The position numbers were made by a program, and so were the translations under genes. A stretch of DNA of 55,774 bases from Parcubacteria group bacterium RIFCSPLOWO2_01_FULL_48_18 (GTDB lineage: Bacteria > Patescibacteriota > Minisyncoccia > UBA6257 > WO2-01-48-18). This document shows positions 22,021 to 36,482 of the stretch, in pieces. Numbering within the stretch: position 1 is the first letter of the stretch; each line of letters begins with the position of its first letter. Under the pieces are notes generated by a model. The model did not search any database. It saw only the letters and a list, made by a program, of their open reading frames with translations, and was not told where the DNA came from. The stretch covers positions 1-55,774 of the forward strand of contig MHXH01000026.1 in assembly GCA_001824435.1 (NCBI GenBank). The letters run 5' to 3'.

Positions 22021-22102
22021 CGAGCAATGGAATTTGGAATTTTGAATTCGGAATTTGGAAAAATTATTCTAAATTCTAAGTTCCAGATTCTAGATTCTAG
22101 AT
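22021..22102. repeat. Inverted heptamer array (GGAATTT repeats facing TTCTARA repeats)
   Basis: Fills the mreB-holB spacer; related arrays at 19999-20034, 23111-23201 and 24483-24565. Confidence 0.75.
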
Positions 22103-23110
22103 TCATCTTTTGAATATGAGCGCCCGTTTATACAAATCAAGATGATCCAACATAACTCCGGCTCCTTTCGCGACGCAAAAGAGCGGCTCTTCCGCAATAT
22201 ACGTTGATACTCCAAGGGCGTGTTTAAAATACTCGTCGATCCCTCGGAGCATCGCGCCTCCTCCCGAAACAATAATTCCTTTCTCCATGACATCGGCAGC
22301 GAGTTCCGGGGGCGTATTATGAAACACCGATTTGATGGTGCTGACAATCTCTGAAAGATTGTATGCAAGCGCTTCGGCAATCTCATTGGAATTAATAGTG
22401 ATATTCTTCGGCAGATTGGTAACTAAGTCGCGGCCGCGGAGTTCAAATTCGAGCCTGGATTTCATCGGCAATGCAGAGCCGATCTCCCACTTCACGATTT
22501 CCGCCGTTTGCTCGCCAATAGCAAGCGCATATTTCTTTTTGACGTAGTCGATAATCGCCTGATCGAATTTATCTCCTGCGACGCGCAGCGACGCCCACGC
22601 CACAATGCCTCCCAATGAAATGACCGCCACCTCGGAGGTTCCTCCTCCGATATTGACAATCATGTTCCCCGAAGGGGTATTAATCGGGATGCCCGCTCCC
22701 AGCGCCGCCAAAATGGGTTCTTTAACGACATAGGCATTCTTCACCCTCGCTTCATAGGCGGCATTGAGCACGGCCCGTCTTTCCGTAGAAGTAATGCCAG
22801 CCGGCACGGAAATAACAACATCCGGCTTGAACACGCGAAACCTGCCAAGAGCTTTATCGATAAAATACCTCAGCATTGCCGCGGTAATATAATAATCAGC
22901 AATCACCCCTTCTTTTAAGGGACGGTGAGCGACAATGTCTTCCGGTGTCCGTCCGATCATTTCTTTGGCGCTTCTTCCTACCGCAACCACGCGATTATCA
23001 TTTAAATTGATTGCGACAATGGACGGCTCGTTAATAAGCAAGCCACGTTTCGGCACAAATACCAGCGTATTCGCAGTACCAAGATCAATGCCTATTTTTT
23101 TGATAAACAA
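22103..23110 (-). CDS. mreB: MreB/Mbl paralogue
   Basis: GIDLGTANT, RPLKEGVIAD, IGGGTSE; second copy in this window. Confidence 0.95.
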   Translation of the reverse strand: MFIKKIGIDLGTANTLVFVPKRGLLINEPSIVAINLNDNRVVAVGRSAKEMIGRTPEDIVAHRPLKEGVIADYYITAAMLRYFIDKALGRFRVFKPDVVISVPAGITSTERRAVLNAAYEARVKNAYVVKEPILAALGAGIPINTPSGNMIVNIGGGTSEVAVISLGGIVAWASLRVAGDKFDQAIIDYVKKKYALAIGEQTAEIVKWEIGSALPMKSRLEFELRGRDLVTNLPKNITINSNEIAEALAYNLSEIVSTIKSVFHNTPPELAADVMEKGIIVSGGGAMLRGIDEYFKHALGVSTYIAEEPLFCVAKGAGVMLDHLDLYKRALIFKR

Positions 23111-23201
23111 CGCTGGAGAAAAGTTAGAAATTAGAACATAGAATTTAGGGAAAATTTAATACTGACCCCCCCCCTAAATCCTAAATCCTAGATTCTAAAT
23201 T

Positions 23202-24482
23202 CTAGATTCTTTTAATATCGGCGCCTAGTTTTTGCAGCGCCTCGTCCAATCGCTCGTATCCTCTGTCAATCTGTTCTATGCCTTGAATAACCGATTTCCC
23301 GCTGGCAATGAGCGCGGCGATCACAAGCGTAGCGCCCGCGCGAATATCCAAGCTTCGTATTTCTATTCCGGAGAGGGGCGTCTTGCCGGTAATACTGGCA
23401 CGATGGGAATCTAACACTCGCGCTCGCGCTCCCATCTTTTTCAACTCATCGATATATTGTAACCTATTTTCAAACAACGTGTCAAAAATAAGGCTTTCCC
23501 CTTGTGCCTGCGTCGCAAGCACGCCAAACGGGGCCTGAAGATCCGTAGGAAATCCTGGATACGGAAGCGTTTGGATGTTTGCTCCCTTCAGCGTTCTGGC
23601 CGCGCCGACAATAAGCTCTCTGCCGCGGCACTCAAATCGGACGCCAAACTCTTTCAGTTTTTGGAGCGTCGCGATAAGATGATCGCACTGCGCGTCGTGG
23701 ATAATCAGTTTTTTCGCGGCCAAGGCTCCCACTACCAAAAATGTTCCAACCGCCAAGTAATCAGAAATAATACGGTGAACGATAGGGGCCAGAACGCCTT
23801 TTCTGCCGACGGCACGCTTTTTACCTTTTATAACAAGACTGTGGGTTCCGAGCCCTGATATTTCGACGCCGATTTTTTTTAGGAACAGACCAAGATCCTG
23901 CACGTGCGGCTCGGCAGCCGCCAAATGGATTTTTGTAGCTTGCGGCGTCAAGGAAAAAAACATCACCATATTCTCGGTCGCGGTCACGCTCAATTCCTTG
24001 AGTACAATCTCCCGCAACGGCTTTCCCGTTATCTTGAAATGATAACGACCCCTCCTACCGTCATACTCAACAGAAACGCCGGCGTCCCGAAATGCATTGA
24101 GGTGCGCATCAAGCGGCCGAGCGCCAATTTTATCTCCACCCGGGAAGCTGACGCTCACTTCATCGCCGCGAGCCAAAAGGGGACCGATCAGCAAGATAGA
24201 GGCGCGAATCCGAGACGCCAGCTGACCGTTAAGTTTTACCGGATCAATCTCGTCATTTACGATCTCAATGGTATGTTCATCGAGCCAGCGCTGGCGAGAG
24301 CCCATCTGCCTCAAAATTTGGAGCATTACTAAAACATCCCCGATTCGGGGAACATTCTGCAATATACACGAACGGTCTGTCAGGAGGGTCGCCGCGATAA
24401 TCGGAAGCGCGGCGTTCTTAGAGCCCTGAACCGTAACTTCACCCTCCAGTTTTCTGCCGCCATTAATAATAAACGACTGCAA
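23202..24482 (-). CDS. murA: UDP-N-acetylglucosamine 1-carboxyvinyltransferase (Asp at the Cys115 position)
   Basis: GSKNAALPI, RAS, PGGDKIGARP, SVTATEN, PYPGFPTDLQ, DIRAG, IDRGYE. Confidence 0.97.
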   Translation of the reverse strand: MQSFIINGGRKLEGEVTVQGSKNAALPIIAATLLTDRSCILQNVPRIGDVLVMLQILRQMGSRQRWLDEHTIEIVNDEIDPVKLNGQLASRIRASILLIGPLLARGDEVSVSFPGGDKIGARPLDAHLNAFRDAGVSVEYDGRRGRYHFKITGKPLREIVLKELSVTATENMVMFFSLTPQATKIHLAAAEPHVQDLGLFLKKIGVEISGLGTHSLVIKGKKRAVGRKGVLAPIVHRIISDYLAVGTFLVVGALAAKKLIIHDAQCDHLIATLQKLKEFGVRFECRGRELIVGAARTLKGANIQTLPYPGFPTDLQAPFGVLATQAQGESLIFDTLFENRLQYIDELKKMGARARVLDSHRASITGKTPLSGIEIRSLDIRAGATLVIAALIASGKSVIQGIEQIDRGYERLDEALQKLGADIKRI

Positions 24483-24565
24483 AACAATTTAGGATTTAGG
24501 ATTTAGGATTTAGGATTTAGGATTCTTGTTCTTCCTAAGTTCTATATTCTAATTTCTAATCCCTT
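24483..24565. repeat. Heptamer array (TTTAGGA x5) with a degenerate inverted arm
   Basis: Read directly from the sequence upstream of murA. Confidence 0.85.
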
Positions 24566-24738
24566 CATTCATTTATTGTACTATCAAATTAAACTTATCA
24601 CTTTTTCAGACAAAAAGAAGGGGCATCACTAAACGAAGTCGTGGTCAGCTAAAAAACCGCCTTGCGGACGGCCATGATTTTGCTTCAAGATATACTCTGT
24701 ATACTCTGCTGTCAAATTTCGTTTCGTGCGTGTGTGTG

Positions 24739-24767
24739 TTGACTTTTTGCTATTTTCACGCTATAAA
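24739..24767 (+). promoter_or_regulatory. Sigma70-like promoter TTGACT-17-TATAAA
   Basis: Correct spacing; upstream of the first island gene. Confidence 0.6.
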
Positions 24768-24808
24768 TGAGCAGGTTACTCGATAACTACATAACACGGA
24801 GAACCGGC

Positions 24809-25489
24809 ATGCCTTGCAACATCGGCTACAAAAGCTACGCGACCATCAAGATCCCCGCGCCCGAACCCCAAACGTTTACGAATAATGCCATGGCGCCCGA
24901 TATCGATGCAGACCTTCTTGAAAAACTCGGCCAGGAAGATACTCAATTCCTGGAGTGGGCACAAGAACTTAACACGAAGCCCCTCCTCGAAGAAGCGCTC
25001 AAGCGCGCGCTGGCAAAAGTGAACACCGGAGGCCTCGTCTTTATAGTAAGCTACGCCGGCGAGCTTGAAGCAAAAGGCTCGTTCACGAGCGCTACCGAAA
25101 AGAACCGCCTCTCGGCCGCAGCCGCCGAAGTTTCGGCACGCTGGCAATTCGAAATCCTCGGCATCGTCGCCGAACTTCTAAACTACACGGTACGCATCAC
25201 CCACAAGGGCGGCGAGTTTATCCTTGAAGCCGAAGAAGAAGACAAGACACACCCGTGCGACTACATCAAGGTTAGCAAGAAGGGCGGCGACGCGACCATC
25301 GTATTCGAACACTTCAAGTCGCGCGACGCCCTCAAGCTTGAAACGGCCAAAGTGCTCGTGCTTGCGCATAAGCTTGGCATCAAAATAGCGCTCGGGAAGT
25401 CCGAGGTGACCGAAGGCGATCCACTTCCCAACGAAAATCGCTTGCGGCATCGCCACGATCACGGACACTCCCCTGACCACAGCCACTAA
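24809..25489 (+). CDS. Hypothetical AAA-ATPase partner (226 aa, His-rich C-terminus); possible DUF1257/DUF2997-like fusion
   Basis: GGAG RBS before MPCNIGYK. The track's ATG at 24767 overlaps the -10 box. Family resemblance is by eye only. Confidence 0.75.
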   Translation: MPCNIGYKSYATIKIPAPEPQTFTNNAMAPDIDADLLEKLGQEDTQFLEWAQELNTKPLLEEALKRALAKVNTGGLVFIVSYAGELEAKGSFTSATEKNRLSAAAAEVSARWQFEILGIVAELLNYTVRITHKGGEFILEAEEEDKTHPCDYIKVSKKGGDATIVFEHFKSRDALKLETAKVLVLAHKLGIKIALGKSEVTEGDPLPNENRLRHRHDHGHSPDHSH

Positions 25490-25517
25490 CCCGAAGGCCG
25501 GCAAAAAGGAGGCTGCG

Positions 25518-27500
25518 GTGAAAACGGAAACCGAATACGCTGAAACAGAAAACGTTTTACCAAGCTGGCTGACGGAAGGCATCGTAAGCCGCAAAGAGGC
25601 AGGTATTTCTTCCGTGTTCATTCTTCACGGAGACATCACCTGTCTTGTGCCCAACCCTTACGGAGACGCAGAGAAAGAATTTCCATATCTGCCCCTCCAT
25701 GAACTGTTCGCCCGAACGTGGGACGAACGAGCGATGGTGATTTTTTATAACATCGCCTCCGGCCTGCGCTTTCTCACTCCCGAAATGGAAAAAGTTTTTC
25801 GTAAGGTGACAGAACCGGAGAAAGACAGCGACGCGGATTCTAAAGACCCTGTAGCAGCTGCGAAGGCTGGACTGGCCGCAAAACGGGCTTTGCCGCGGGA
25901 ACCCGAACTATGCCTGCCGCTCATTGAGAAAGTCTTGAAGAACATGAAGGATGTCGCCATCGTTGTAGAATCAGCGCACTTCATCGTTCCGGAATCGACC
26001 GGTCCGGCGCTTTCGCCGAACGAACGTACGCACATCCAACGTTTCCGGAACTGGGCGCACGAAAGCGGTATGAAAAGGCGGAACAATATCGTTCTTCTGT
26101 TCACCGATCTCGCTGCGAAGATCTCGGGAGAGCTGCGACAGTCTTCAAGTCGCATTTCGATCGTTTTCATTCCAAAACCGTCGCCGGAGGAACGCAAAAA
26201 ATACCTCCTGCGGCTTACCAAGGGATCGGATGCGCGGTCTGAAATCGTCGAGAAGATCGGCGAGCTGAAAAAAAAGCTCAAACGCGCCAAGGGCGAACCG
26301 AAGTCTGATCTTGAAGCCGAAATTTCGGCCCTCGAAAAAAACCTGGATGATTTTCCATCGGTCTTTCCGGTGCCGGACGATTTTGACACCGACGCGTTCG
26401 TCAACGCCACGCAAGGCATGAGCTTGCGCCAGATTCTTGAAATTTTCCGGCTCAATAAACAGACGGGGTGCCCGATCGACCTTTCATTCGTGCGGGAAAA
26501 AAAGAAGGAAGTCCTCAACAACGAATATGGTTCGGTCATGGAAATCACCGATCCGCAGTGGAGCCTCGAAGAAATCGGTGGGCTCGTTACGCAAAAAGCC
26601 CACTTCGAGCGGATACTCGATGCGATCCGGCGGGGAGAGGCCCGTAACATCCCGCAAGGCATTACGATCATGGGTCCGCCGGGAACCGGCAAAACGGCGC
26701 TCGTTGAAGCTCTTGCGAAGGGCGCGCGCTTCAATTTCGTCAAAATGAAAAACGCCCGCTCCATGTGGGTAGGCGAATCCGAACAGCGAACGGAGTTGCA
26801 GATCCAGGGGCTCTGGGCGCTCGCCCCGGTCATCGTCATGAACGACGAAGCGGACCTCGGCGAGGCGAATCGCGATGCCCCGAAAGGCGATTCAGGAGTT
26901 TCCGAACGCATCATGCAAACCTGGATGCGATTCCTCTCTGATCCCCGTATCCGCGGCAGAGTCCTGATGATAAACTGCACCAACCGCCCTGACCGCATGG
27001 ATGCGGCCATGAAACGATCCGGCAGAAGCGATGATCGCATTGCAATCCTCATGCCCTCGGTCAACGAACTTGAAGCGATTTTCCAAGTGATGTTCAAACG
27101 ATACAAAATCCCGATGTCGATTTCTAACTTTCGTCCGTTCGCTCAAATGACGCTTGGATTTTCGGGAGCAGACGTCGAGGCCATCACGCTCAAATCGTTT
27201 CGATTTGCAGGCGAGCAGGACAAAAAGAAGGTCGATGAGACCGCCCTACACGAAGCCATCGAAGATTTCATTCCTTCGGCGAGCCAGTCGGAAATCGACC
27301 TGATGACGCTACTCGCAATCTCCGAATCGTCCTCACGCAGACTCCTACCGGTAAACACGCGCGAGATCGTTCAGGCGATTAAAATCCGCAACCTTGTTCC
27401 CGGCGGGCCGGAGCTGATAGCGCAGATAGAAGCCCGCAATATCGTCAAACTCGAAGACCCTCTACCGGTTCCGTCTGTATCTCCGAAAATGCTGAAGTAA
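25518..27500 (+). CDS. AAA+ ATPase with a degenerate N-terminal ATPase-like domain
   Basis: AAGGAGG RBS; Walker A GPPGTGKT, Walker B VIVMNDEAD, pore loop MWVGESE, SRH TNRPDRMDAAMKRSGR. Confidence 0.92.
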   Translation: MKTETEYAETENVLPSWLTEGIVSRKEAGISSVFILHGDITCLVPNPYGDAEKEFPYLPLHELFARTWDERAMVIFYNIASGLRFLTPEMEKVFRKVTEPEKDSDADSKDPVAAAKAGLAAKRALPREPELCLPLIEKVLKNMKDVAIVVESAHFIVPESTGPALSPNERTHIQRFRNWAHESGMKRRNNIVLLFTDLAAKISGELRQSSSRISIVFIPKPSPEERKKYLLRLTKGSDARSEIVEKIGELKKKLKRAKGEPKSDLEAEISALEKNLDDFPSVFPVPDDFDTDAFVNATQGMSLRQILEIFRLNKQTGCPIDLSFVREKKKEVLNNEYGSVMEITDPQWSLEEIGGLVTQKAHFERILDAIRRGEARNIPQGITIMGPPGTGKTALVEALAKGARFNFVKMKNARSMWVGESEQRTELQIQGLWALAPVIVMNDEADLGEANRDAPKGDSGVSERIMQTWMRFLSDPRIRGRVLMINCTNRPDRMDAAMKRSGRSDDRIAILMPSVNELEAIFQVMFKRYKIPMSISNFRPFAQMTLGFSGADVEAITLKSFRFAGEQDKKKVDETALHEAIEDFIPSASQSEIDLMTLLAISESSSRRLLPVNTREIVQAIKIRNLVPGGPELIAQIEARNIVKLEDPLPVPSVSPKMLK

Positions 27501-27507
27501 TTACAGA

Positions 27508-27543
27508 GCCTTGCCGCCCCCGCGCGACAAGGTTTTTTCTTTT
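27508..27543 (+). terminator. Intrinsic terminator after the ATPase
   Basis: CCTTGCCGC...GCGACAAGG followed by TTTTTTCTTTT. Confidence 0.7.
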
Positions 27544-27591
27544 GCAATCACACCGTAGGGTCCAGATACAGTTTTATTATCGAAACTCGAG

Positions 27592-27621
27592 TTGACAGAA
27601 GAATCGTGCCAATGATACCAT
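27592..27621 (+). promoter_or_regulatory. Promoter TTGACA-18-TACCAT with TGn extension
   Basis: Consensus -35 upstream of vWA gene 1. Confidence 0.55.
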
Positions 27622-27710
27622 AGAGCTGGATTGAAACCTTGAAAATAGAATGTCGCGGCCCGAACGATCTTCCGGCAACTCACCAACAACCCACACAAAA
27701 GGAGGCTGGT

Positions 27711-28736
27711 ATGGGCGGTGGCGGCGACTATTACGGTCGGGACGTAACCGACAAGAGATACCGTAGCGCGAGCGGCGCTTCGAACATGGCGGAACGGGAG
27801 CTGTCTCGAGCTTCAATCGATACATCCTTCCTGCCAAAGAATCGCAGATTGGAGTGCAATGCTCTCAATCCCCTCGTGTATGCATTCGACGAAACTGGTT
27901 CAATGGACAAACTGCCGAAGATCATCTACGACAAGTGGCCGGGCATTGTGGGCCAGATCGTGGCGCGCAAGTACTTATCCGATCCGCAGATGAGCCTTGC
28001 GGCCATTGGCGACATCACTTCCGACACGGCACCGATCCAGATCGCCCCGTTTTCGGCATTGCGCAACCTCGACCGATATTTCAGAAATATCTATTTCGAG
28101 GGTAATGGTGGCGGCCAAAGCCAAGAATCATACGAGATGATGGCGTATTACTACGCTTATCTGTGCGATATCCCGAAAGCGGAAAATCCTATCTTCCTAT
28201 TTACCGGAGACGAGGGATTCCGAGAAAAGCTTTTTGCGTATGATCTCTTCGAACATTTCGGCGGCGAGCATAAAGAAACGACGGCAAAGAAGGTTTTTGA
28301 CGACCTGCTCAAAAAGTTCAAAGGTAACGCATTCCTCATCCATCGCTACTACCCCGGTGGAAAAGACCCGTCAATCGTGCGTCAGTGGGAAGGAGCGCTT
28401 GGCAAGGAACGTATCATCCGAATGCCCGAAGGCGAGAGCGGTGATCTGGCTATCGGCGATATCACTCTCGGCGTCTACGCCATCGTTTCCGGCGGGCGCA
28501 CGCTTGAACAGTATCTCGAGGATATGCGCACCCGCCCGCTCGATCTCGGCACAGACATTGAGTACGAGCCGCAGACTCCCGCGCGCATCAGAGATGTGGC
28601 CAAGGCGCTTAAACCTCTCGAGAACTTCAGGCCCGTTAAAGCTCCGCGCCGGACCGCGAAGTCGGCCAACGGTAAGACGTCCTCCGAGAAAAAGCCGCCT
28701 GCGAAAAAAAAGGGAAAGGGTAACTTCAGATTTTAG
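27711..28736 (+). CDS. vWA (MIDAS) domain protein 1
   Basis: AAGGAGG RBS then MGGGGDYY; DETGSM, GNGGG..ESY, FLFTGDE; Lys-rich tail ending KKKGKGNFRF. Confidence 0.82.
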   Translation: MGGGGDYYGRDVTDKRYRSASGASNMAERELSRASIDTSFLPKNRRLECNALNPLVYAFDETGSMDKLPKIIYDKWPGIVGQIVARKYLSDPQMSLAAIGDITSDTAPIQIAPFSALRNLDRYFRNIYFEGNGGGQSQESYEMMAYYYAYLCDIPKAENPIFLFTGDEGFREKLFAYDLFEHFGGEHKETTAKKVFDDLLKKFKGNAFLIHRYYPGGKDPSIVRQWEGALGKERIIRMPEGESGDLAIGDITLGVYAIVSGGRTLEQYLEDMRTRPLDLGTDIEYEPQTPARIRDVAKALKPLENFRPVKAPRRTAKSANGKTSSEKKPPAKKKGKGNFRF

Positions 28737-28750
28737 TTGATTAGATTTAA

Positions 28751-28782
28751 GCCGTGAGCAGATCGCTCACGGTCTTTTATTA
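28751..28782 (+). terminator. Intrinsic terminator
   Basis: CCGTGAGC-AGATC-GCTCACGG followed by TCTTTTATT. Confidence 0.75.
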
Positions 28783-28811
28783 TTGACTATCGTGCATCCG
28801 GGTGGTACAAT
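28783..28811 (+). promoter_or_regulatory. Promoter TTGACT-17-TACAAT with TGn extension
   Basis: Near-consensus; upstream of the PK-like gene. Confidence 0.65.
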
Positions 28812-28865
28812 TGTGGTGTTCTTTAACAACAAGTCGTTAAAGCCGCAACGCGGAGAGGAAACGAC

Positions 28866-29792
28866 ATGCTCATTTTAACATTGCCGCAGGTGCATCAAAA
28901 AGACCTGCTCAAAGACATGATCGCCCACCCGCTTGTCAAAGCGGTGCGATACAACACGGGCACGAATTCAGCGTACAGTCCGCGAGAAACCCTTCGACGA
29001 ATCTCAACTCTCGCACAGCCTTTCAAAAAACCCGTATATGTTGACCTCAAAGCCAAGCAACTGCGCGTGGTCGAATGGGCAAATCTGCCCGAGGGGCCGA
29101 TCGTACTCAACCACCGTATTACCGTTACGCTCCCCGCAACAGTCTGCTTTCGGGGTGACGACCGCTCACAATTATGCGAAGTGGTCGACGGCAACCAAAT
29201 TTATGTTGACCCGCTGCCAAAGTATCCGGTGGGGCGCGGACAGGCCGTTAACATTCTCGCGCCCGATCTCAAGATCGAGGGCGGGTTGCTACCGGCTGAC
29301 CACGACTACATTGAAGCCGCGCTAGCCGAAGGCATGTCCCGGTTCATGCTTTCATTCGTCGAGAATATGGACGACGTGCGTGAACTGGAAAATGCTATCG
29401 GGCGCTATCGCAAATCACGGACAAAGACTCCATGCGAGATCGTGCTGAAAATCGAATCGCGTGCCGGGATCGACTTTGTCGCAAAAACTGAAACCAGCCT
29501 CCTGCGTCCGTACCGGCTCATGGCTGCGCGAGACGACCTGATGATCCAGATCGGCATCAACGCTATGCCAGACGCCCTCAAGATAATCATTGAAAAGGAC
29601 CGGCATGCGATCTGCGCCTCACGCCTGCTCATGGGCCTTGAAACAGGCGCGATATCGATGGCCGACGTATCTGATCTGGAGTACATGAAATCGTTATCGT
29701 ATGGGATATTCATGCTCTCCGACAGCATCTCGCGTAACCACTTCCGCCCGGCCATGGATTTCTGGCTTTCGTATACAGGCGGTACCCCGTGA
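28866..29792 (+). CDS. Pyruvate-kinase-like protein (barrel plus B domain, no C-terminal allosteric domain)
   Basis: PK motifs in order: RYN, DLKAKQLR, LSFVE, LKIES, MAARDDL, ASRLL, FMLS; 308 aa. Confidence 0.8.
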   Translation: MLILTLPQVHQKDLLKDMIAHPLVKAVRYNTGTNSAYSPRETLRRISTLAQPFKKPVYVDLKAKQLRVVEWANLPEGPIVLNHRITVTLPATVCFRGDDRSQLCEVVDGNQIYVDPLPKYPVGRGQAVNILAPDLKIEGGLLPADHDYIEAALAEGMSRFMLSFVENMDDVRELENAIGRYRKSRTKTPCEIVLKIESRAGIDFVAKTETSLLRPYRLMAARDDLMIQIGINAMPDALKIIIEKDRHAICASRLLMGLETGAISMADVSDLEYMKSLSYGIFMLSDSISRNHFRPAMDFWLSYTGGTP

Positions 29793-29860
29793 GTACTTAT
29801 GCGGGGCGTTCTCATGGACCGATTCTGTCCTGTGCATACGGGGGGACATAAGGCGTACGC

Positions 29861-29889
29861 TTGACGCGGCGGCATTGATCATATACAAT
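29861..29889 (+). promoter_or_regulatory. Promoter TTGACG-17-TACAAT
   Basis: Near-consensus; followed by a GC-rich leader hairpin at ~29907-29933. Confidence 0.6.
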
Positions 29890-29966
29890 ATCGGTGCAGT
29901 AAATTGCGACCCGGGGTTTTTACCTCGGGGTCGGCTTGCTTACAGAACCTTAACAACGGGGGACAA

Positions 29967-31106
29967 ATGAGAGAAAAGGGCGATTGGTCACGGGCGACAT
30001 ACCGAGACACCGAGACAAAGACCAAGAAATTCGGTAGCGCGACGTTTGTCGGCGAAGAACGGGCACGTCAAGGCAAGGGCCTTGATTCCTTGATCGACCC
30101 TTCACAGCGCGGAGTCATCCGCGAATCGAATAATCTGCTCGTGCCCGACGGAGATGAATTCATTCTCAAGTTCGGCGTTGCGATGCCGGTCGAGACTGAT
30201 TTCGATACGACCGGGTCGATGGGTGGCAATGTTGACGTCGCTTTTGCGGTTCTGCCGAAAGTGCAGGGTCTTTTAGTTCAAGGGGCGAACGCTGTCCTAC
30301 GCCGGTATCACACCCAGATCGCCACCGGCGTTATCCAGGACCGCCTGGATCGATTCCCCTACCAACGATCGCAGTTCGAACCCGACAATGAAGTTGAGCG
30401 TCAAATGGGATTACTGGTCCCCGAACGCAGTGGTGGGGACAGTACCGAAGATTACCAGCTGGGACTATTCGCGGCTGCCCACCTCACCAGCACGAGCATT
30501 ACGCGGTACGGCCTGCGAGGCTATTACTTCGTTGTGGGAGATGAAATCGGGCGCGACTCGCTCGACCCCAAGCTCCTCACTAAAGTTTTCGGTCCCGAGG
30601 TCATCGAAAAGGCCTTTGGTTCAAAACCTCCGAAGTCCCTGCCTTCTACCCGCGAGGTCGCGAAGAAGGTACTCGAAAACTGGCATGGCTTTTTCCTGCA
30701 AGTAGGCACAAACCGCTACACGAAGGACTGGTGGACAGAAATCTTCGGGAGCGAGCGGGTGATTCAACTGCCGACAACCCAGGATCTCGCCGAGATCCAA
30801 GCATGCGTCATCGGCCTTACCGAAGGCGTACTCGACCTCAGGAACGCCATGGATTTCCTCAAAGACATGGAAGTCAGTCCGGCGAAAACCCAGAAGATCG
30901 TTGATGCGATTTCCCAAATTCCGGTTGGCTTGCAGACGACGCTTCCAAGCTTCAACCGGATCCCGGCTGCAGGCGCACGATTCGCAAGCCGCGAAGACAT
31001 CTGGCCGATCGGCACGAAGAAGGACATGGCTGCCAAAACCGAAAAAACCGGCAAGCCTGGCAAAACTGCCAAGCCCGGCAAGAAAAAGGGCGATTTCAAG
31101 TTCTAA
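29967..31106 (+). CDS. vWA (MIDAS) domain protein 2
   Basis: GGGGGA RBS, ATG 29967; DTTGSMG, SGGD..EDY, YYFVVGDE; tail ending KKKGDFKF. Confidence 0.82.
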   Translation: MREKGDWSRATYRDTETKTKKFGSATFVGEERARQGKGLDSLIDPSQRGVIRESNNLLVPDGDEFILKFGVAMPVETDFDTTGSMGGNVDVAFAVLPKVQGLLVQGANAVLRRYHTQIATGVIQDRLDRFPYQRSQFEPDNEVERQMGLLVPERSGGDSTEDYQLGLFAAAHLTSTSITRYGLRGYYFVVGDEIGRDSLDPKLLTKVFGPEVIEKAFGSKPPKSLPSTREVAKKVLENWHGFFLQVGTNRYTKDWWTEIFGSERVIQLPTTQDLAEIQACVIGLTEGVLDLRNAMDFLKDMEVSPAKTQKIVDAISQIPVGLQTTLPSFNRIPAAGARFASREDIWPIGTKKDMAAKTEKTGKPGKTAKPGKKKGDFKF

Positions 31107-31129
31107 ATTCTGACCTGTTCAAAAAACCA

Positions 31130-31157
31130 GGGCGGCCCCACTCGGTCGCCCGTTTTT
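31130..31157 (+). terminator. Terminator-like hairpin between vWA gene 2 and the PurA-like gene
   Basis: GGGCGGCC-CCACTC-GGTCGCCC followed by GTTTTT. Confidence 0.6.
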
Positions 31158-31176
31158 AAAAAGAAAGGAGGCGCGC

Positions 31177-32586
31177 ATGGCAAAGAAGGTTTTCGTGGTA
31201 ACAGGACTCGGCTACGGCGATGAAGGAAAGGGCACGATCACGCACTGGCTGTGCCATGCGCACAGGGCTCACACGGTGGTACGGACGGGCGGACCGCAAG
31301 CGCTCCACCGCGTCGTCACCGCCGCGGGCAAAGAACATGTGTTTTCACAATTCGGTAGCGGCACGCTCTGCGGATCGGCCACTCACCTATCAAAGCACAT
31401 GGTGATCGATCCATATGCGATCCTGAAAGAGGGCGAAGCGCTCATGTACGAGCATGGGGTCCGCGGCCTCTTCGACATGCTCACGATCCACGAGGACGCC
31501 TTAGTTATCACGCCGTTTCAAGCAATCGTCGGTAGACTACGCGAACTTCTGCGTGGCGCCAAGCGGCACGGATCGGTTGGCATCGGGGTAGGAGAAACGG
31601 TGCTTGATGACGATGTGTTTGGCGATACCGCAGTCCGCGCAAAAGACCTTAACGCACCTTCCCTGCGGACCAAACTTGAAGCTATTCGGCTCCGCAAGTT
31701 GACAGAATTCGAGGAAATTCGCGACCGCGCCCATGTCCTTCCGCCGGAGACGAGAGATCGCATCCAATTGGAACTCCGCGATCTTGAAGATCCGGATACG
31801 ATCCAATGGGCAGTCGAGCAATTCACGAAGCTCGCATGCAAAACCAGAGTCGTCGGCACGGAGTATGTTGCAAAAAATATTCTGGAGAGCGACGGCACCG
31901 TGGTGTTTGAGAGTTCCCAGGGAGTGCTCCTTGATCGCTGGTACGGATTTCATCCATACACCACAAAGGTCAGAACCATCCCAGGAACGGCACTTTCGAT
32001 CATCCGGGAATGCGCGTATGGCGGCGAGATCAACGCCTATGGCATCCTGCGCGCGTACCACACGCGGCACGGCGCAGGTCCATTCGTAACAGAGTCATCA
32101 GAAATAACAGCGCTTCTGCCCGACGCCTCAAATCGGGACCATGCGTGGCAAGGCAATTTCCGAGTCGGCCAGTTCGATCTCGTAGCCGCCAGATATGCTG
32201 TCGACGCATGCGGTTCGCATTCCCTTGATGGCATCATACTTACATGCATGGACCGGATCCGCCCTTCGGCCACGGTTCGCTTCGCCGAAAGATACGAATC
32301 CGTGCCGGTAGAGCACACGCAGGACTTTTTCCGCAGATCAACCGACACATCGATCGAGCGGATCATTGTCCGCCATGGACAAGGCCCTGCACAGCTACAG
32401 CGGCAAGAAAAACTAGGAAAGGCTTTGGAAACATGCTCGCCACGTCTTACGCAATGCACAAAAAATATCTTTCCCGAGATGCTCGCGGACGCGCTCAACG
32501 TACCGATCGTGGCCATTTCTACGGGCCAGACCGAAGATAATAAATCGGTAGTTACCCAAATAGAAAAACGGGCGGTTTCATTATGA
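31177..32586 (+). CDS. Adenylosuccinate-synthetase-like protein (divergent PurA family)
   Basis: GLGYGDEGKG, GGPQALH, HGSVGIGVG, FESSQGVLLD...GFHPYTT, YHTRHGAGPFVTE, FRVGQFD; AGGAGG RBS. Confidence 0.9.
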   Translation: MAKKVFVVTGLGYGDEGKGTITHWLCHAHRAHTVVRTGGPQALHRVVTAAGKEHVFSQFGSGTLCGSATHLSKHMVIDPYAILKEGEALMYEHGVRGLFDMLTIHEDALVITPFQAIVGRLRELLRGAKRHGSVGIGVGETVLDDDVFGDTAVRAKDLNAPSLRTKLEAIRLRKLTEFEEIRDRAHVLPPETRDRIQLELRDLEDPDTIQWAVEQFTKLACKTRVVGTEYVAKNILESDGTVVFESSQGVLLDRWYGFHPYTTKVRTIPGTALSIIRECAYGGEINAYGILRAYHTRHGAGPFVTESSEITALLPDASNRDHAWQGNFRVGQFDLVAARYAVDACGSHSLDGIILTCMDRIRPSATVRFAERYESVPVEHTQDFFRRSTDTSIERIIVRHGQGPAQLQRQEKLGKALETCSPRLTQCTKNIFPEMLADALNVPIVAISTGQTEDNKSVVTQIEKRAVSL

Positions 32587-32608
32587 AACTGCCCTGTTTA
32601 TTTTTCTT
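32570..32608 (+). terminator. Terminator overlapping the stop codon of the PurA-like gene
   Basis: GGGCGGTTTCA-TTA-TGAAACTGCCC followed by a T-rich tract. Confidence 0.7.
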
Positions 32609-32649
32609 ATTTTCCGATCACTCCATCCGCTCAGCGGTCTTTCCGGCCA

Positions 32650-34599
32650 TTAATCACTCTTGCTTACAATCTGGGGAAGAAACACGCGGCTTACAAACAA
32701 TGTAGTCGCCAACCGTCTGTATCCAGAATCCCAAAAAACGCTCTGCGGATCAATGCCGTGCGCGTTCGGTGCCTTGATGCCGCCCTGCTCCGGGTACAAA
32801 CGTCGGTAGCCCTTGTGCATCAAACGGTACTGCAAAACCTCGCGCTCAATCCCCTTCAACCATTCTGTTCTCGCGTCATGCGATTCAAACTTCTTGCCAT
32901 TCGAGTAAAGAAATCCGGGCAAGAGATTTGCATAGAGCTCTTTGATCGCCTCTTGCGACCCGAACCAAACACCGCCGAGTAACACATGTGCCCATGTACT
33001 GTCGGCGAGCGAGACGTCCATATCCGCAAGGTCGCGAACGACGAGCTTGTCGCCCTTCGCGCCTTCGGCAGCAAGCCAGAACTCGACGATGCTTCCGCGG
33101 ATCTTGTTATCCGGAAACACACGGGAGAGGGCTTGTCGTATACGGGGACGGTCCGCGAAAAGAACATCCGCCTTCACAAAAACTGCGATATCGACATCCG
33201 CGTTGCGCTTGGCATACCCCTTAAGTCGTGATCCGAAAAAAATGACAATCGGATAAAGGAGCCGCGAGAGCTCATCGTCCATTCGCACGGCCTCTATGAC
33301 AGGCGCAAGTTTTTCGAGCTCGGCCGCAATCAACCGATTGCCATTTAAATGTAGCTTGTCCAGGCACGGGACTTCGATCCCGAACCACTCCAAGAATGAG
33401 CTTTGAAGAATTCCCTGATTCACCCAACGAATAAGGACGCTGGTTATGGCGTCTCTCTCACCGGGCACGCCTTTCACCCATGCATCTCGCAAATCGGCTT
33501 GAAAGCTGCCCGCCATCTCGACCGCCCTCGAAGAACCGGCTGTAACCAGTAACTCCACAGCTCTTCCAAGACCGCGAATGATCGCTAAACGGAGAACCTT
33601 CCCATCGGCAGACGCGAGAAGGGCCCGAATATCACTAACTCTCTCCGGGTTTCCGGCAAGCAGCATTGCCATTCGATCGGCGTATCTGCTCGCAAGCTTA
33701 TCTTCTCTATCGAGCCGTTCCCATGCTACCCTGGGCCGAGGCAGGTCACGGGACTCATCGAGGGTCACGCGCATCTCTATTTTTTTCATTTCGAATTCCG
33801 CATCGGCTGCAAGACCGGCAAGCCATGCGCGATCCGTCTTCGTCTGCGCGCAAATGCTTGCATTCCTCTTTTCCGCATACGGATAGAAGCCGTGCGCACG
33901 GGTGATACGATCGCACTCACCGTAATCAAGATACGACATGCCCGCAAGAACAGGCAGGACATCGACTACGCCCCGCCTCAAGGCTTCAGAAGGATTCGTG
34001 TCCAAAAGAGCAACCGCATCCGCCGTAGCAAGAAGTTCTTTTTCGACAAGATATGGAATCAGGTGGGCAGCCTTGCACACAACGGGCTGGCCGCTTGGGC
34101 TCAATTCCGTTTCCAATATATCCCCATCTACAAAATTGGCCCGTACATCTTTTTCAACAAGCAGCTCGCGCCAGCATTTCATATACGAGGCGCGGAAATG
34201 CTCGGCGGCACCGGCAACCCGAGAGGAACGGGACTGCCAATTTTTCCTCGGCACAAGCTCGAATGGAAAGTAAAGGACAAGTCTTCGGTTATACGAGTCA
34301 CTGTCCAAAAAGTCTGCCAGCATCGCATACAGCTCTGCGGCGAACTCCGGATCAACGTTTCCCGAATCTATTGCTTCAGTCAATTCCGCGGTCACAAGCG
34401 GCAGCTGCTTGAAAAGCGCATCAAGCTTAGCGAACAAATCCAGGCGCTGGCGGGCATCAACCCGTATGAACGGGTTTTCCCGTATTTCAACCGGCCAGAA
34501 AGAGCTCTCGCGCGCTATATGAAGAAGAGATTCTATGGCTGGCGGAACATCAATAACTTCAAACAACTGCGCCGCTCCGCTTTCGTTCGAATCAGTCAT
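32650..34599 (-). CDS. Large protein with a C-terminal Pol-beta-type nucleotidyltransferase motif
   Basis: FFGSRLKGYAKRNADVDIAVFV (GS...DxD); AAGGAGGAG RBS; 649 aa. Confidence 0.75.
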   Translation of the reverse strand: MTDSNESGAAQLFEVIDVPPAIESLLHIARESSFWPVEIRENPFIRVDARQRLDLFAKLDALFKQLPLVTAELTEAIDSGNVDPEFAAELYAMLADFLDSDSYNRRLVLYFPFELVPRKNWQSRSSRVAGAAEHFRASYMKCWRELLVEKDVRANFVDGDILETELSPSGQPVVCKAAHLIPYLVEKELLATADAVALLDTNPSEALRRGVVDVLPVLAGMSYLDYGECDRITRAHGFYPYAEKRNASICAQTKTDRAWLAGLAADAEFEMKKIEMRVTLDESRDLPRPRVAWERLDREDKLASRYADRMAMLLAGNPERVSDIRALLASADGKVLRLAIIRGLGRAVELLVTAGSSRAVEMAGSFQADLRDAWVKGVPGERDAITSVLIRWVNQGILQSSFLEWFGIEVPCLDKLHLNGNRLIAAELEKLAPVIEAVRMDDELSRLLYPIVIFFGSRLKGYAKRNADVDIAVFVKADVLFADRPRIRQALSRVFPDNKIRGSIVEFWLAAEGAKGDKLVVRDLADMDVSLADSTWAHVLLGGVWFGSQEAIKELYANLLPGFLYSNGKKFESHDARTEWLKGIEREVLQYRLMHKGYRRLYPEQGGIKAPNAHGIDPQSVFWDSGYRRLATTLFVSRVFLPQIVSKSD

Positions 34600-34757
34600 A
34601 TCTCCTCCTTTCGGTCGCGATATCCAATTTTAATTGTTAAAGAAACAATACTATTATACGCTCGGCTTTGGCTATTTGTAAAGGAAAGAAGCCCAATGGT
34701 TCAACTACGTAACTCGTAGGCTTATTAAAACCGAGTGGGAAGTCAAACCGTACGAAA

Positions 34758-35360
34758 CTACTCCACCGCCCAAATCGTCCCTACGCTGAAAAATCTGTCG
34801 CAGTCATAGTTGTACACGCCGGTGCCGGATGCAAAGCTAATCGTTACAGTGGTAGAACCAAGAGGAGGAATGGACGACAACGGATCTTCGGTAAGAAGCG
34901 TATGCCCGATTTCGTCTGTGTTGATAATCGTAATGTGTTGGCCGATTTTAGCCCGCACAACAGCCGGTTCGGGAATGCAGTTGGTAATCACAATCGTGTC
35001 GGTTGCCACTGCCATTTCTTTTACTATTTTTAGGTACTCATCGATTTGCTCCGGCGTCGGATCCTTCGGCAGCTGCGGATTCTTGCTTTCGGGAAAAACA
35101 ACATTTTCCTCTTTAAGAGTACTCTGCTTGAATTTCTCTAAGAGCGCTTTTTTCTGCTCTTCCGTAAGATACTGGTCCGTCTGTTCGGGCAAAAGAACCG
35201 ACGCCGACGACGCCGTACCGCTATCGATTTTCACTCCGACGCGAGGAGTAATTTCACTCAGCGCGCTATAGTAAGATTTATACTTGACAGCAGTAATCAG
35301 TGCGCCACCCAGTCCCGCCGTAATGACAATGATGGCAAGCCAAAGCCCGATTCGTTTCAT
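34758..35360 (-). CDS. Membrane-anchored protein with a cupredoxin-like C-terminal domain
   Basis: N-terminal TM; NTDEIGHT...GVYNYDC...GTIWAVE pattern, with an incomplete copper-ligand set. Confidence 0.6.
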   Translation of the reverse strand: MKRIGLWLAIIVITAGLGGALITAVKYKSYYSALSEITPRVGVKIDSGTASSASVLLPEQTDQYLTEEQKKALLEKFKQSTLKEENVVFPESKNPQLPKDPTPEQIDEYLKIVKEMAVATDTIVITNCIPEPAVVRAKIGQHITIINTDEIGHTLLTEDPLSSIPPLGSTTVTISFASGTGVYNYDCDRFFSVGTIWAVE

Positions 35361-35501
35361 AATTGCGATTATATTTTATGGGACGAAACGTAATGCGTGT
35401 TTCTTAACTTCGCTCAAGGCGAAACGCTATTAACGTTTTTGCCACTGCAACGCTATGGTGCGGGGTGAACCTTAGGGGCTTAAAATAAAAAGCTACCAAG
35501 G

Positions 35502-36215: not shown

Positions 36216-36276
36216 GGACACCCCCTCATAGCATGCATCTACTAAAGGAATAAAAGCATGCTTTCTGTAAAAAATC

Positions 36277-36302
36277 AAGAGCCGCGGGGTTCCGCGGCTT
36301 TT
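36277..36302. terminator. Terminator downstream of rpsI (bidirectional-looking)
   Basis: AGCCGCGG-GGTT-CCGCGGCT with A/T tracts on both sides. Confidence 0.7.
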
Positions 36303-36482
36303 GTGTATATTTCAATTCTGTGAAGATCCGTATCTGCGGTGCTCGTTTATCCTTTCCGTCAATCAAGCACTCGGGTCAAAATTTCCTCGTATTTACTCAT
36401 ACAGACAGCGTTGTCTACGGGGCTCGTTTATCGCTTGGTTTCGCCCACCCATTCACTCAGCTCAGAGTGGTCAAAAAGATAG

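Follow-up and report, generated by a model that had tools for sequence, protein, structure and literature searches.

The window analysed here is a 55,774-nucleotide stretch from Parcubacteria group bacterium RIFCSPLOWO2_01_FULL_48_18, a small bacterium of groundwater. It holds six co-oriented plus-strand genes, g1 to g6, and a convergent minus-strand gene, C2 (Table 1). Nearly all remaining long open reading frames in the window lie on the minus strand, as stated in a preliminary description made from the sequence alone. The six genes are a real set, kept together in relatives, although the unit does not end with them: C2, missed in that description, is a seventh member and extends the unit to position 34599. 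The starts of g1, g3 and g5 were moved to M15, M25 and M22 on the basis of family alignment and ribosome-binding sites. Strong Shine-Dalgarno sites, claimed for all six genes, were found for four, reading aaaggagg before g2, g3 (at M25) and g6 and ggagagg before g4, whereas the sites of g1 and g5 are weaker. The set is not one tight operon, since intergenic gaps of 129 to 210 nt contain promoter-like and terminator-like sites. By pattern scan, such sites are no more numerous in the region than in shuffled sequence, and for this reason the hairpin at the end of g6 is only suggestive of a terminator.

Table 1. Features of the module, with the open reading frames as originally delimited and the positions adopted after revision of starts.
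Feature	Position	Open reading frame	Strand	Length	Assignment and basis
g1	24809..25489	24767-25489	+	226 aa from M15	small Cys/His protein
g2	25518..27500	25518-27500	+	660 aa	classic-clade AAA+ ATPase; PF00004, 1.5e-21
g3 (vWA-A)	27711..28736	27639-28736	+	341 aa from M25	vWA/MIDAS-type; phrog_2971, 1.5e-17
g4	28866..29792	28866-29792	+	308 aa	minimal pyruvate-kinase-like (PK-like) enzyme; PF00224
g5 (vWA-B)	29967..31106	29904-31106	+	379 aa from M22	vWA/MIDAS-type; model and Foldseek
g6	31177..32586	31177-32586	+	469 aa	PurA-like GTP-type ligase with rebuilt amine-substrate loop; PF00709
Replaced loop in g6	32146..32178		+		WQGNFRVGQFD, aligned to the aspartate-binding PurA loop ATTGRRRRTGWLD
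Terminator-like hairpin	32570..32594		+		between convergent g6 and C2; pattern scan
C2	32650..34599		-	649 aa	convergent with g6

The genes are indeed GC-richer than their surroundings, as had been supposed before any computation: GC content is 0.543 for the six genes (0.541 for the seven-gene unit) versus 0.480 and 0.475 for the 10-kb flanks and 0.481 for the whole genome, and the value of the module is not reached in any of the 480 windows of 9.8 kb into which the genome was sampled. Raised GC is nevertheless a family trait, present in 44 of 45 module loci, and is therefore no evidence for recent transfer or for an island newly arrived. Housekeeping genes make up the flanks, where neither an integrase nor a tRNA nor flanking repeats were found.

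The proposal that these genes recur together in other genomes is borne out by related loci. In 78 of 80 related genome loci a PurA-like gene comes directly after the g5-type gene, and HMM tallies over the 80 give PurA-like 78, C2 65, a kinase-like protein (C3) 64, PK-like 11, AAA 10 and g1 10. The six-gene order occurs in at least ten genome loci and, with or without C2, in metagenome loci L123-125, L130 and L132. The constant core is a vWA/MIDAS gene directly before the PurA-type ligase gene, usually together with the convergent nucleotidyltransferase-domain protein; in the window a second vWA paralogue, g3, is paired likewise with the minimal pyruvate kinase g4, and in related loci a g3-type gene always precedes the PK-like gene. 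Upstream is a "regulator slot", occupied here by g1 and a Ycf46/SpoVK-type pore-loop AAA+ unfoldase and in most relatives (64 of 80) by C3, which is mutually exclusive with the AAA gene across the 80 loci. In most relatives C3 lacks the HRD aspartate, and it is thus uncertain whether this kinase-like protein regulates by phosphorylation. In a sample of 401 genomes from the phylum, low-scoring PurA-like genes number roughly six, and among 40 same-order relatives only one gives a strong match. Among Mycobacterium phage records, 201 contain a PurA-like match and 200 a vWA match, and a Bixzunavirus carries a triad of kinase, vWA and PurA-like genes; an IMG/VR search with the g5 profile returned a single contig. 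Rarity combined with presence in about 200 mycobacteriophages is compatible with either a metabolic role or a role in conflict. We found no published description of the module.

The g1 protein matches no family in Pfam, NCBIfam, PHROG or PADLOC, and Atlas leads (DUF2997, DUF1257) were weak only. Its ten homologues, each placed before an AAA gene, conserve its Cys/His positions; its motifs are an invariant N-terminal MPCNIGYKS, HPCDY, FEHF and a His-rich tail. In g2, residues 1-330 form a family-specific N-domain, and the ATPase motifs are intact, with Walker A GPPGTGKT at 386 and Walker B VIVMNDE at 438, accompanied by a pore-loop-like MWVG and by TNRPDRMD...RSGRSD. The top NCBIfam matches of g2 are PAN, FtsH and Cdc48, each far below cut-off, and relatives sharing its N-domain carry the JGI name "SpoVK/Ycf46/Vps4 family". 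Its closest paralogue in the same genome adjoins a ClpP-like protease gene. Defence-system detection, which had been suggested for this locus, gave little: PADLOC models matched none of the other five proteins, and g2 showed weak matches of IetA/TRIP13 type, scoring 38.8 bits against the IetA equivalog with its cut-off of 510.

Both proteins read earlier as vWA proteins prove to be so, although neither has a Pfam match. Their families are paralogues (hhalign 99.4%), and phrog_2971 matches both. The motifs, MIDAS-type, are DETGS, GNGGGQ..ESYE and GDE in g3, which starts with MGG, and DTTGS, GGDSTED and GDE in g5; each protein has a Lys-rich tail, disordered in g5, ending in NFRF and DFKF, respectively. 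The g3 family has 1186 representatives at E<=1e-3. An AlphaFold model of g5 (pLDDT 87.4) matches 123 PDB chains at E<=1e-3 by Foldseek, including integrin beta-I, vWA, NorD-vWA and ArnB, and among them the NorD vWA domain bound to NorQ (9qh6). C2 has an N-terminal helical region followed by a Pol-beta-type nucleotidyltransferase core (GS...DxD at about 456-470), in which G456, S457, D468 and D470 are invariant in the family. The core matches Polbeta PF18765 weakly (4.2e-5) and, in the PDB, an HI0073-type nucleotidyltransferase (0.0038); the C2 model (pLDDT 88.2) finds no PDB fold at E<=1e-3.

The two enzymes are each the only match in the genome to their Pfam family, and both fall far below NCBIfam equivalog cut-offs. 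For g4, a barrel whose B-domain is short and which lacks a C-terminal domain, PF00224 scores 34.7 bits (1.4e-8; cut-off 30), and all 101 PDB sequences found by the family profile are pyruvate kinases (best 6e-13). The catalytic set of pyruvate kinase is invariant in the family (R28, N30, D60, K62, R67, K195, E197, D224), which makes NTP regeneration, proposed earlier for this protein, plausible. For g6, PF00709 (Adenylsucc_synt) scores 171 bits (4.3e-50) and phrog_1211 8.7e-63, while the two NCBIfam purA equivalogs give 133.9 against a cut-off of 402 and 107.5 against 395.55. The enzyme retains the GTP loop as well as the catalytic residues, Asp and His (GDEGKG, GG..H, a QG motif, T.MD, STG). 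When g6 is aligned by phmmer to E. coli-type PurA, the aspartate-binding loop is seen to be replaced, the consensus of the PurA-like family there being NRWQGxVRVGPLD; two residues aligned to IMP-phosphate contacts are also altered. With the loop replaced, adenylosuccinate, the PurA product, is unlikely to be made by g6. Across most of the family, the position of PurA Gln224 is occupied by His, which counts against the reaction proposed below. Grouping with housekeeping PurA was tested in a tree and is absent: the g6 clade, which includes the mycobacteriophage "PurA-like" protein gp255, stands apart from the phylum's canonical PurA, represented by 30 sequences (SH-aLRT 100).

The absence of purB, first remarked on for the window, extends to the whole genome (95.9% complete), which contains no other Lyase_1 gene either. 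Lyase_1 is present in 10 of 39 module-carrying genomes, compared with 24 of the 30 genomes encoding canonical PurA. At least six of the 39 carriers also encode a canonical-scoring PurA, and thus the PurA-like enzyme is not simply a replacement. Since Lyase_1 was not seen in five of those dual carriers and is lacking in 6 of the 30 canonical-PurA genomes, the lyase argument is statistical rather than absolute. IMP is plausible as a metabolite here, since the genome carries phosphoribosyltransferase genes and one of the IMPDH family.

Genes for NrtR-like proteins, PncB, PncA, NadE, NadD or ADP-ribosylglycohydrolase accompany the module in 24 of the 80 genome loci and in 10 of 32 metagenome loci; in L128, L136 and L137, NadE separates the PurA-like gene from the PK-like gene. 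In relatives, the module and NAD-salvage genes have a palindromic operator in common, TAGTGT-N7-ACACTA: 51 of its 97 sites (at most two mismatches) in 1.19 Mb fall in the 300 nt before a module or NAD gene, and it precedes the g5-type gene in six-gene loci L012, L017 and L018. These neighbours and the common operator are the strongest context signal, and one invisible to the preliminary description. The source genome has no NrtR-type domain and no operator site within one mismatch, and its NAPRTase gene is on a contig other than that of the module; the NAD link therefore comes from the relatives only.

From these observations we infer substrates, binding partners and a role for the module, which we tentatively regard, mechanism included and at a probability of roughly 0.4, as one form of a conserved, undescribed nucleotide-handling unit of candidate-phyla-radiation (Patescibacteria-like) bacteria. 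Lying among NAD-recycling genes in relatives, it probably rebuilds adenine nucleotides or NAD. The reaction we favour is gated and dependent on GTP; it would aminate a 6-oxopurine nucleotide but take no aspartate, and PEP would serve to regenerate NTP. Using GTP, g6 would phosphorylate a hypoxanthine nucleotide at the 6-oxo group, either IMP or something larger such as a hypoxanthine dinucleotide, and an amine other than aspartate would displace the phosphate, giving an adenine-type nucleotide without adenylosuccinate lyase, while g4 would regenerate GTP or ATP from PEP. The MIDAS site of each vWA protein may bind the partner enzyme, so as to hold, assemble or gate it, and g2 may reset or release the vWA-enzyme complexes, perhaps via the tails, which are disordered, rich in Lys and aromatic at the end. 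By analogy with the relatives, the module would supply or repair the adenine-nucleotide part of the NAD pool. Part of the earlier interpretation survives in this account, namely co-occurrence, a divergent PurA, the missing purB, the vWA proteins and, as plausible, NTP regeneration; the six-gene extent and adenylosuccinate as product do not. The set may serve stress or conflict, as that interpretation allowed, or plain salvage.

An ordinary housekeeping reading, in which g6 is adenylosuccinate synthetase and g4 glycolytic pyruvate kinase, beside unrelated genes by chance, could draw on their standing as sole family matches and on their core catalytic residues. It is largely refuted, and we consider it very improbable, given the low equivalog scores, the replaced loop, the separate clade, the missing purB and Lyase_1 genes, the canonical PurA found beside the module in other carriers and the strict pairing of each enzyme type with a vWA gene across genomes. 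A conflict system, in defence or counter-defence, is less easily set aside, although we hold it to be rather unlikely. The vWA proteins with kinase or AAA+ would sense attack and release two nucleotide enzymes, which would act on GTP, IMP or PEP by draining or altering them, produce a signal, or keep NAD+ from being depleted; phage copies would act in reverse during infection. Proteins with vWA, kinase, AAA+ and Pol-beta nucleotidyltransferase domains are typical conflict-system parts, and the patchy, rare distribution, the phage triad and phage matches and the weak IetA matches speak for such a system; the NAD-salvage and ADP-ribosylglycohydrolase neighbours would suit NAD-centred conflicts. 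Against this, the g2 match is generic and the other five proteins have none in PADLOC, the flanks are housekeeping without mobility features, the g5 profile finds one IMG/VR contig, both enzymes conserve catalytic residues as working metabolic enzymes do, and the common operator points to metabolic regulation.

An AAA+/vWA enzyme-maturation or activase system, in which g1 would deliver metal and g2, through the vWA adaptors, would insert it into the clients g4 and g6 or strip tight-binding inhibitors from them, leaving the enzymes to do ordinary salvage chemistry, seems to us improbable. AAA+ remodelling cannot be the general mechanism, because 64 of 80 related loci have the kinase-like protein without ATPase or g1; g2, moreover, belongs to the classic PF00004 clade, not to MoxR or chelatase-type ATPases. 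Neither PurA nor PK is known to need an inserted cofactor, their known requirement being for exchangeable Mg2+ and K+. The conserved Cys/His positions and His-rich tail of g1 are nonetheless consistent with metal delivery, and the AAA+ gene adjoins a pair of MIDAS-type vWA genes that each neighbour the gene of a client enzyme, an arrangement that, together with the NorD vWA-NorQ fold match, likens such a system to the Rubisco activase CbbQO and to NorQD.

An ORF scan of the window finds six genes on the plus strand, encoding in order a small Cys/His protein (g1), an AAA+ ATPase (g2), a vWA protein (g3), a pyruvate-kinase-like enzyme (g4), a second vWA protein (g5) and a PurA-like ligase (g6), while nearly all other long ORFs lie on the minus strand, as the preliminary description had it. 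Three start sites were corrected from family alignments and ribosome-binding sites. The left flank is housekeeping, with a murA-like gene of the EPSP_synthase family, mreB, and holB-like genes; to the right come the convergent gene C2 and two unassigned ORFs, and then ribosomal protein S9, again housekeeping. The whole window makes up one contig (C26) of a genome of 1.21 Mb, with a completeness of 95.9%. Its relatives have small genomes and the homologs come from sources named Parcubacteria and Patescibacteria, as would be expected of a bacterium of the candidate phyla radiation. At the far left of the window, a very long minus-strand ORF, encoding more than 2559 residues, runs off the end. 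Coordinates and tallies are collected in the table.

The six genes originally described are real, but the unit is larger than those six, with C2 as its seventh conserved member. To establish this, loci were gathered by profile search with an alignment of g5-type vWA proteins (A1), the ORFs of the 80 related genome loci were clustered, and each component was tallied with HMMs. A g5-type gene is followed directly by a g6-type gene in 78 of the 80 loci; of the two exceptions, one is cut off by the end of its contig and the other is an odd locus. The commonest architecture consists of a kinase-like protein (C3), a vWA protein, the PurA-like ligase, and then C4 or its relative C13, with C2 convergent; that of the window is g1, AAA+, vWA, PK-like, vWA, PurA-like, again with C2 convergent. 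C3 and the AAA+ gene are mutually exclusive across the 80 loci. The order seen in the window recurs in loci L011-L013, L016 and L017, with variants in L014 and L018-L020, and also in metagenome loci found via the PK-like protein; a compact metagenome variant reads C3, single vWA, PK-like, PurA-like, and the same-order relative G027 has vWA, PurA-like, DnaJ-kinase, vWA, PK-like and then a GATase gene. Gene-neighborhood analysis, which had been proposed as a check, thus finds both the vWA-ligase pair and the full six-gene order conserved elsewhere. Even so, the module is rare and its distribution patchy: a strong match occurs in just one of 40 same-order relatives. In a sample of 401 genomes from the phylum, about 6 have a low-scoring PurA-like gene, and most of the other 75 that match PF00709 have the score of a canonical PurA.

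Features of the window, its genome and related loci: positions, and occurrence among the 80 related genome loci
Feature	Sequence	Positions	Strand	Loci
Six ORFs, g1-g6 (ORF scan)	window	24767-32586	plus	
g1, small protein (corrected start)	window	24809	plus	10/80
Corrected start of g3 (first vWA gene)	window	27711	plus	
Corrected start of g5 (second vWA gene)	window	29967	plus	
C2, 649-aa gene	window	32650-34599	minus	65/80
Tandem 7-mer TTTAGGA	window	24486-24526		
Very long ORF, open at left end	window	1-7677	minus	
Gene run with g2 paralogue	same genome, contig C18 (locus L154, 612-9637)	18450-25136	minus	
Class-I glutamine amidotransferase gene	G027, locus L008	16629-17411		
Palindrome sites (example)	L066	7991-8061		
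Palindrome sites (example)	L057	17235-17253		
C3, kinase-like protein				64/80
C4				45/80
C13, related to C4				15/80
PK-like protein				11/80
Family-specific AAA+ ATPase				10/80

C3 has a CK2-like kinase fold in which the HRD aspartate is not conserved. C2 carries a nucleotidyltransferase core of the Pol-beta type, its G-S and D-x-D motifs invariant, and this core is the only part supported by Atlas and PDB sequence searches; the rest is a long helical region, modeled with confidence, and a Foldseek search of the model against PDB returned no match at E<=1e-3, just armadillo/importin-like helices. C4 and C13, the downstream genes of most relatives, are absent from the window's locus and found no match in Pfam or PDB; hhalign comparisons of g1 with C3, and of C4 with the PK-like family, showed no link.

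The preliminary description had put the island down, without computation, as richer in GC than its flanks. It is indeed: the six genes have a GC fraction of 0.543 against 0.481 for the genome, a value reached by none of 480 genome windows of island size, and C2 (0.534) resembles them. This might be read as the mark of a recent foreign island, but module GC exceeds that of the flanks in 44 of the 45 loci with enough flank, by a mean of 5.7 points, and the excess is therefore a trait of the family rather than a sign of recent acquisition; we reject that reading. Module GC follows host-genome GC across loci. At the borders of the island we found no tRNA and no flanking direct repeats, and no integrase among the scanned flanking genes. 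A pattern scan of the island for promoters and terminators gave site counts not above those of shuffled sequence.

Contigs from four other DNA runs, mapped to window positions 22000-37000, cover the island and bridge both the g6/C2 junction and that between C2 and the right flank; the left junction is unbridged among the pieces listed from those runs, with the break at a 7-mer tandem repeat. This repeat consists of some five copies of TTTAGGA within the 284 nt that separate the murA-like gene from g1, and it breaks short-read assemblies at this spot. In four public metagenome runs the summed contig depth over it is 10-30 times that of its surroundings, with many loose ends, and so it must be present in many other contigs.

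The ligase g6 matches PF00709 at 171.1 bits (cut-off 27) over profile positions 1-412 of 416, so that the fold of PurA (EC 6.3.4.4; with 1ADE and 1KJX among its E. coli structures) is present along the whole length. It scores far below the purA equivalogs, however (133.9 against 402 for NF002223, 107.5 against 395.55 for TIGR00184), and reaches 42 bits against 300 for PurZ (NF038379), over residues 6-112 only. We compared residues by alignment to E. coli-type PurA and then across 33 relatives, 34 family members in all, with residue roles as given in the PurA literature. The P-loop (GDEGKG, at residue 14) and the GG..H segment (GGPQALH, at residue 38), which carry the counterparts of the catalytic Asp13 and His41 of PurA, are kept, their positions invariant or nearly so in the 34 members. 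Also kept are the STG motif and the Asp that specifies guanine, with TKLD of PurA becoming TCMD. What PurA uses to bind aspartate is replaced: the loop with Thr300, Thr301, Arg303 and Arg305 aligns to W-Q-G-N-F in g6, with one residue missing, and the family consensus there is NRWQGxVRVGPLD. Equivalents of Thr129 and Arg143, which contact the IMP phosphate in PurA, are lost.

Rather than grouping with housekeeping PurA, the 34 PurA-like proteins and a phage homolog, gp255, are split from 30 canonical PurA sequences of the phylum with an SH-aLRT of 100 and a long branch. The absence of purB, earlier noted for the window, extends to the genome, in which, at 95.9% completeness, neither purB (TIGR00928) nor any Lyase_1 member (PF00206) was found; the genome has an IMPDH-family gene and three phosphoribosyltransferase-family genes, and a GMP-synthase C-domain was not found in it. 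Lyase_1 is present in 10 of 39 module-carrying genomes, and in 24 of the 30 whose PurA is canonical. At least six of the 39 carriers have, in addition, a PurA of canonical score, which argues that the PurA-like enzyme has a role distinct from that of PurA. Complex prediction of g6 with g5, run without controls, gave a score of 0.00 and a mark of 0.32, values that speak neither for nor against binding.

The two vWA proteins have no Pfam match at E<=0.01, and a homolog in G027 matches only VWA_2, at E 0.0071. They are paralogs of each other (hhalign, 99.4%), both match phrog_2971, and the model of g5 (pLDDT 87.4) matches 123 PDB chains at E<=1e-3, among them integrin beta-I, the collagen VI vWA domain, the NorD vWA domain and ArnB (8s05_B). 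Because of this paralogy, shared family and fold, we classify both from sequence and model as vWA/MIDAS-type proteins, with a predicted metal site. The MIDAS motif is a variant, D-x-T-G-S (DTTGS in g5, DETGS in g3), followed further on by acidic motifs, in g5 GGDSTED and GDE; D80, T82, S84 and D192 are invariant in alignment A1. In both proteins the C-terminal tail is disordered and rich in Lys, and an aromatic residue stands near its end. The g3 family numbers 1186 representatives at E<=1e-3. Some distant members in its alignment A2 (P0148, P0156, P0158 and P0177), all starting with an invariant Met-Gly-Gly, have C-terminal extensions with motifs that look by eye like a U-box, a RanBP2 zinc finger or a Nudix box.

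The enzyme encoded between the two vWA genes, g4, is a pyruvate kinase barrel of 308 residues with a short B-domain of about 60 residues; a Pfam scan found no C-terminal PK domain. It is the sole match of the genome to PF00224 (34.7 bits, cut-off 30) and scores 44-53 bits against pyruvate kinase equivalog cut-offs of 306-432 (TIGR01064: 44.2 against 306.4). A profile built from 12 family members matches only pyruvate kinases in PDB, and the aligned catalytic residues (the Arg/Asn/Asp/Lys set and Lys-Glu...Asp) are invariant in all 12. The protein shares the catalytic constellation of the pyruvate kinase barrel but differs in lacking the regulatory C-terminal domain, in its short B-domain, and in being encoded beside a vWA gene. 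Judged by its length, g4 would be, if active, among the smallest of its family.

The ATPase g2 belongs to the classic clade of AAA+ proteins (PF00004, 1.5e-21), in which both Walker motifs (A and B), MWVG as a pore-loop-like motif, and the second region of homology are all intact, behind a family-specific N-domain of 330 residues. Its best NCBIfam matches are PAN, FtsH and Cdc48, not the MoxR/chelatase clade, and relatives sharing the N-domain are called 'SpoVK/Ycf46/Vps4' by JGI. The gene for its nearest paralog in the genome comes right after that of a ClpP-like protease, in the same run as JAB-like and E1-like genes; this setting supports the view that the g2 family are substrate-threading unfoldases. 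The run itself, outside the window, consists of co-oriented genes for, in order, an S1-domain protein, the ClpP-like protease, the paralogous AAA+ protein, a 417-residue protein, a weak Prok-JAB match and a ThiF/E1-like protein, and it resembles a ubiquitin-like conjugation pathway to which an unfoldase and a protease are coupled, remarkable in so small a genome. The small protein g1 has conserved Cys3, HPC and FEHF features and a His-rich tail; its family was not found in Pfam, NCBIfam, PHROG or PADLOC, and the only leads, DUF2997 and DUF1257 in the Atlas, were sub-threshold.

In relatives the module is associated with NAD salvage. Clusters of neighboring genes assigned by Pfam include NrtR-like, NAPRTase, PncA-like isochorismatase, NadE, NadD-like adenylyltransferase and ADP-ribosylglycohydrolase families; at least one such gene occurs in 24 of 80 genome loci, and an NrtR-like gene in 20. 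Of 32 metagenome loci, 10 have at least one NAD-type gene; in L123-L125 all six genes and C2 stand between PncB/PncA and NadD/NadE/NrtR. Genes able to supply ammonia adjoin the PurA-like or PK-like gene in several relatives: in G027 a class-I glutamine amidotransferase, and in L128, L136 and L137 NadE, lying between the two; the NadE representative scanned, from L057, carries a CN_hydrolase domain. We searched the upstream regions of related loci for palindromes. One, TAGTGT-N7-ACACTA, has 97 sites with up to two mismatches in 1.19 Mb, 51 of them within 300 nt upstream of starts of module or NAD genes, and 19 exact sites against about 0.1 expected by a rough composition-based estimate. Sites precede C3, the g5-type gene in six-gene loci, and the NrtR-like, PncA, NadE and NadD genes. 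There are often two or three in tandem (loci L010-L089). From this placement we infer that the palindrome may be the operator of NrtR, a regulator that senses ADP-ribose. In the genome studied here, the NrtR-type domain (PF21906) was not found, nor was the palindrome in the window with up to two mismatches or in the genome with up to one; the NAPRTase gene lies on another contig.

The core of the module occurs also in phages. The ligase matches 236 phage records, 201 of them from Mycobacterium phages, and g3 matches 203, of which 200 are from Mycobacterium phages; a search of IMG/VR viral contigs with the A1 profile gave one locus only. These phage copies, together with the patchy distribution, keep a conflict role, either in defense or in guarding NAD, as a serious rival to a metabolic one. 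Defense-system detection, a check that the preliminary description had put forward, gave no support beyond a generic match: among the six proteins PADLOC matched the ATPase g2 alone, found no IetS protease partner, and g2 scores 38.8 bits against 510 for the IetA model NF042959.

On the metabolic reading, the one we favor, the module would probably work as follows. The ligase would use GTP to activate a 6-oxopurine nucleotide and would then join this to a non-aspartate amine, g4 would regenerate NTP from PEP, each vWA protein would bind the enzyme encoded directly after its own gene, and the complexes would be switched by an ATP-using regulator, whether a pseudokinase or an AAA+ ATPase with g1, with output to the adenine-nucleotide and NAD pool. 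A more pointed version, which we regard as unlikely, with perhaps one chance in five, makes g6 a one-step 'adenine-forming' aminase: with GTP it would activate IMP, or a hypoxanthine dinucleotide (deamino-NAD, for example), at the 6-oxo group, which would give way to ammonia or another non-aspartate amine, possibly from the NadE or GATase encoded alongside in relatives, so that AMP or NAD would be rebuilt without adenylosuccinate lyase, while the dedicated vWA partner would restrain the enzyme until it is freed by a pseudokinase or, in the window's variant, by the AAA+ unfoldase. If true, this would be a new purine/NAD-salvage reaction common to minimal-genome bacteria and large phages.

Bacteria of the candidate phyla radiation generally lack de novo purine synthesis, and to our knowledge little is understood of how they keep adenine, guanine and NAD in balance. 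The module, conserved and centered on a PurA-type enzyme with neither the aspartate site nor the lyase partner, may bypass the textbook two-step reaction. Its core is also carried by about 200 mycobacteriophages and so may be relevant to phage handling of host nucleotide or NAD pools. The window adds to this picture a variant with AAA+ ATPase and g1, a double pairing of vWA protein with enzyme, the C2 partner, and a copy that has lost NrtR control. That an AAA+ unfoldase with g1 here replaces the kinase-like regulator, beside a second vWA protein with a mini pyruvate kinase and with NrtR control absent, suggests that the module keeps its vWA proteins as fixed adaptors and can exchange the ATP-using regulator. 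A full-text literature search, covering main texts, turned up announcements of phage genomes and papers on unrelated subjects, with no description of the gene set among the hits listed.

Among known systems, PurZ of the phage 2-aminoadenine pathway is likewise a PurA-family ligase with altered substrate, also borne by phages, and the best PHROG family of g6 carries a PurZ-type name. PurZ still uses aspartate, however, the weak match of g6 to its model is limited to the first 108 residues, and datZ- or mazZ-type partner genes were not found among the module neighbors examined. The phage relative studied closely, Shaqnato of mycobacteriophage cluster C (Bixzunavirus), encodes in gp252-gp255 a Ser/Thr kinase by annotation (gp252) that the C3 profile hits at 2.7e-20, a member of the g3/g5 vWA family (gp253) and the 'PurA-like adenylosuccinate synthetase' gp255, with 34% identity to g6 over 98% of its length and placed in the same clade; it differs in an insertion of about 270 residues in gp253 and in the absence of AAA+ and PK-like genes and C2. 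The phage literature, as far as it was accessible, reports no function for these genes.

CbbQ-CbbO, NorQ-NorD, CoxD-CoxE and the I/D subunits of Mg- and Co-chelatases likewise place an ATPase beside a MIDAS-type vWA protein and the genes of client enzymes, and the vWA domain of NorD is among the fold matches of g5. The module differs in that its ATPase is of the PF00004, Ycf46/SpoVK-like kind instead of the MoxR or chelatase type, its vWA family has no Pfam VWA match, its clients are new, and most relatives have a kinase-like protein in the ATPase's place. In that last respect it resembles ArnB with ArnC/ArnD, in which a vWA protein, also among the fold matches of g5, is encoded with a eukaryote-like kinase, and may also resemble the TerY-P triads, which combine a vWA protein with a eukaryote-like Ser/Thr kinase. 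The module showed neither a PP2C phosphatase nor an FHA partner. It differs from such vWA/kinase switches in that the window's variant has no kinase and the C3 protein of its relatives lacks the conserved HRD aspartate.
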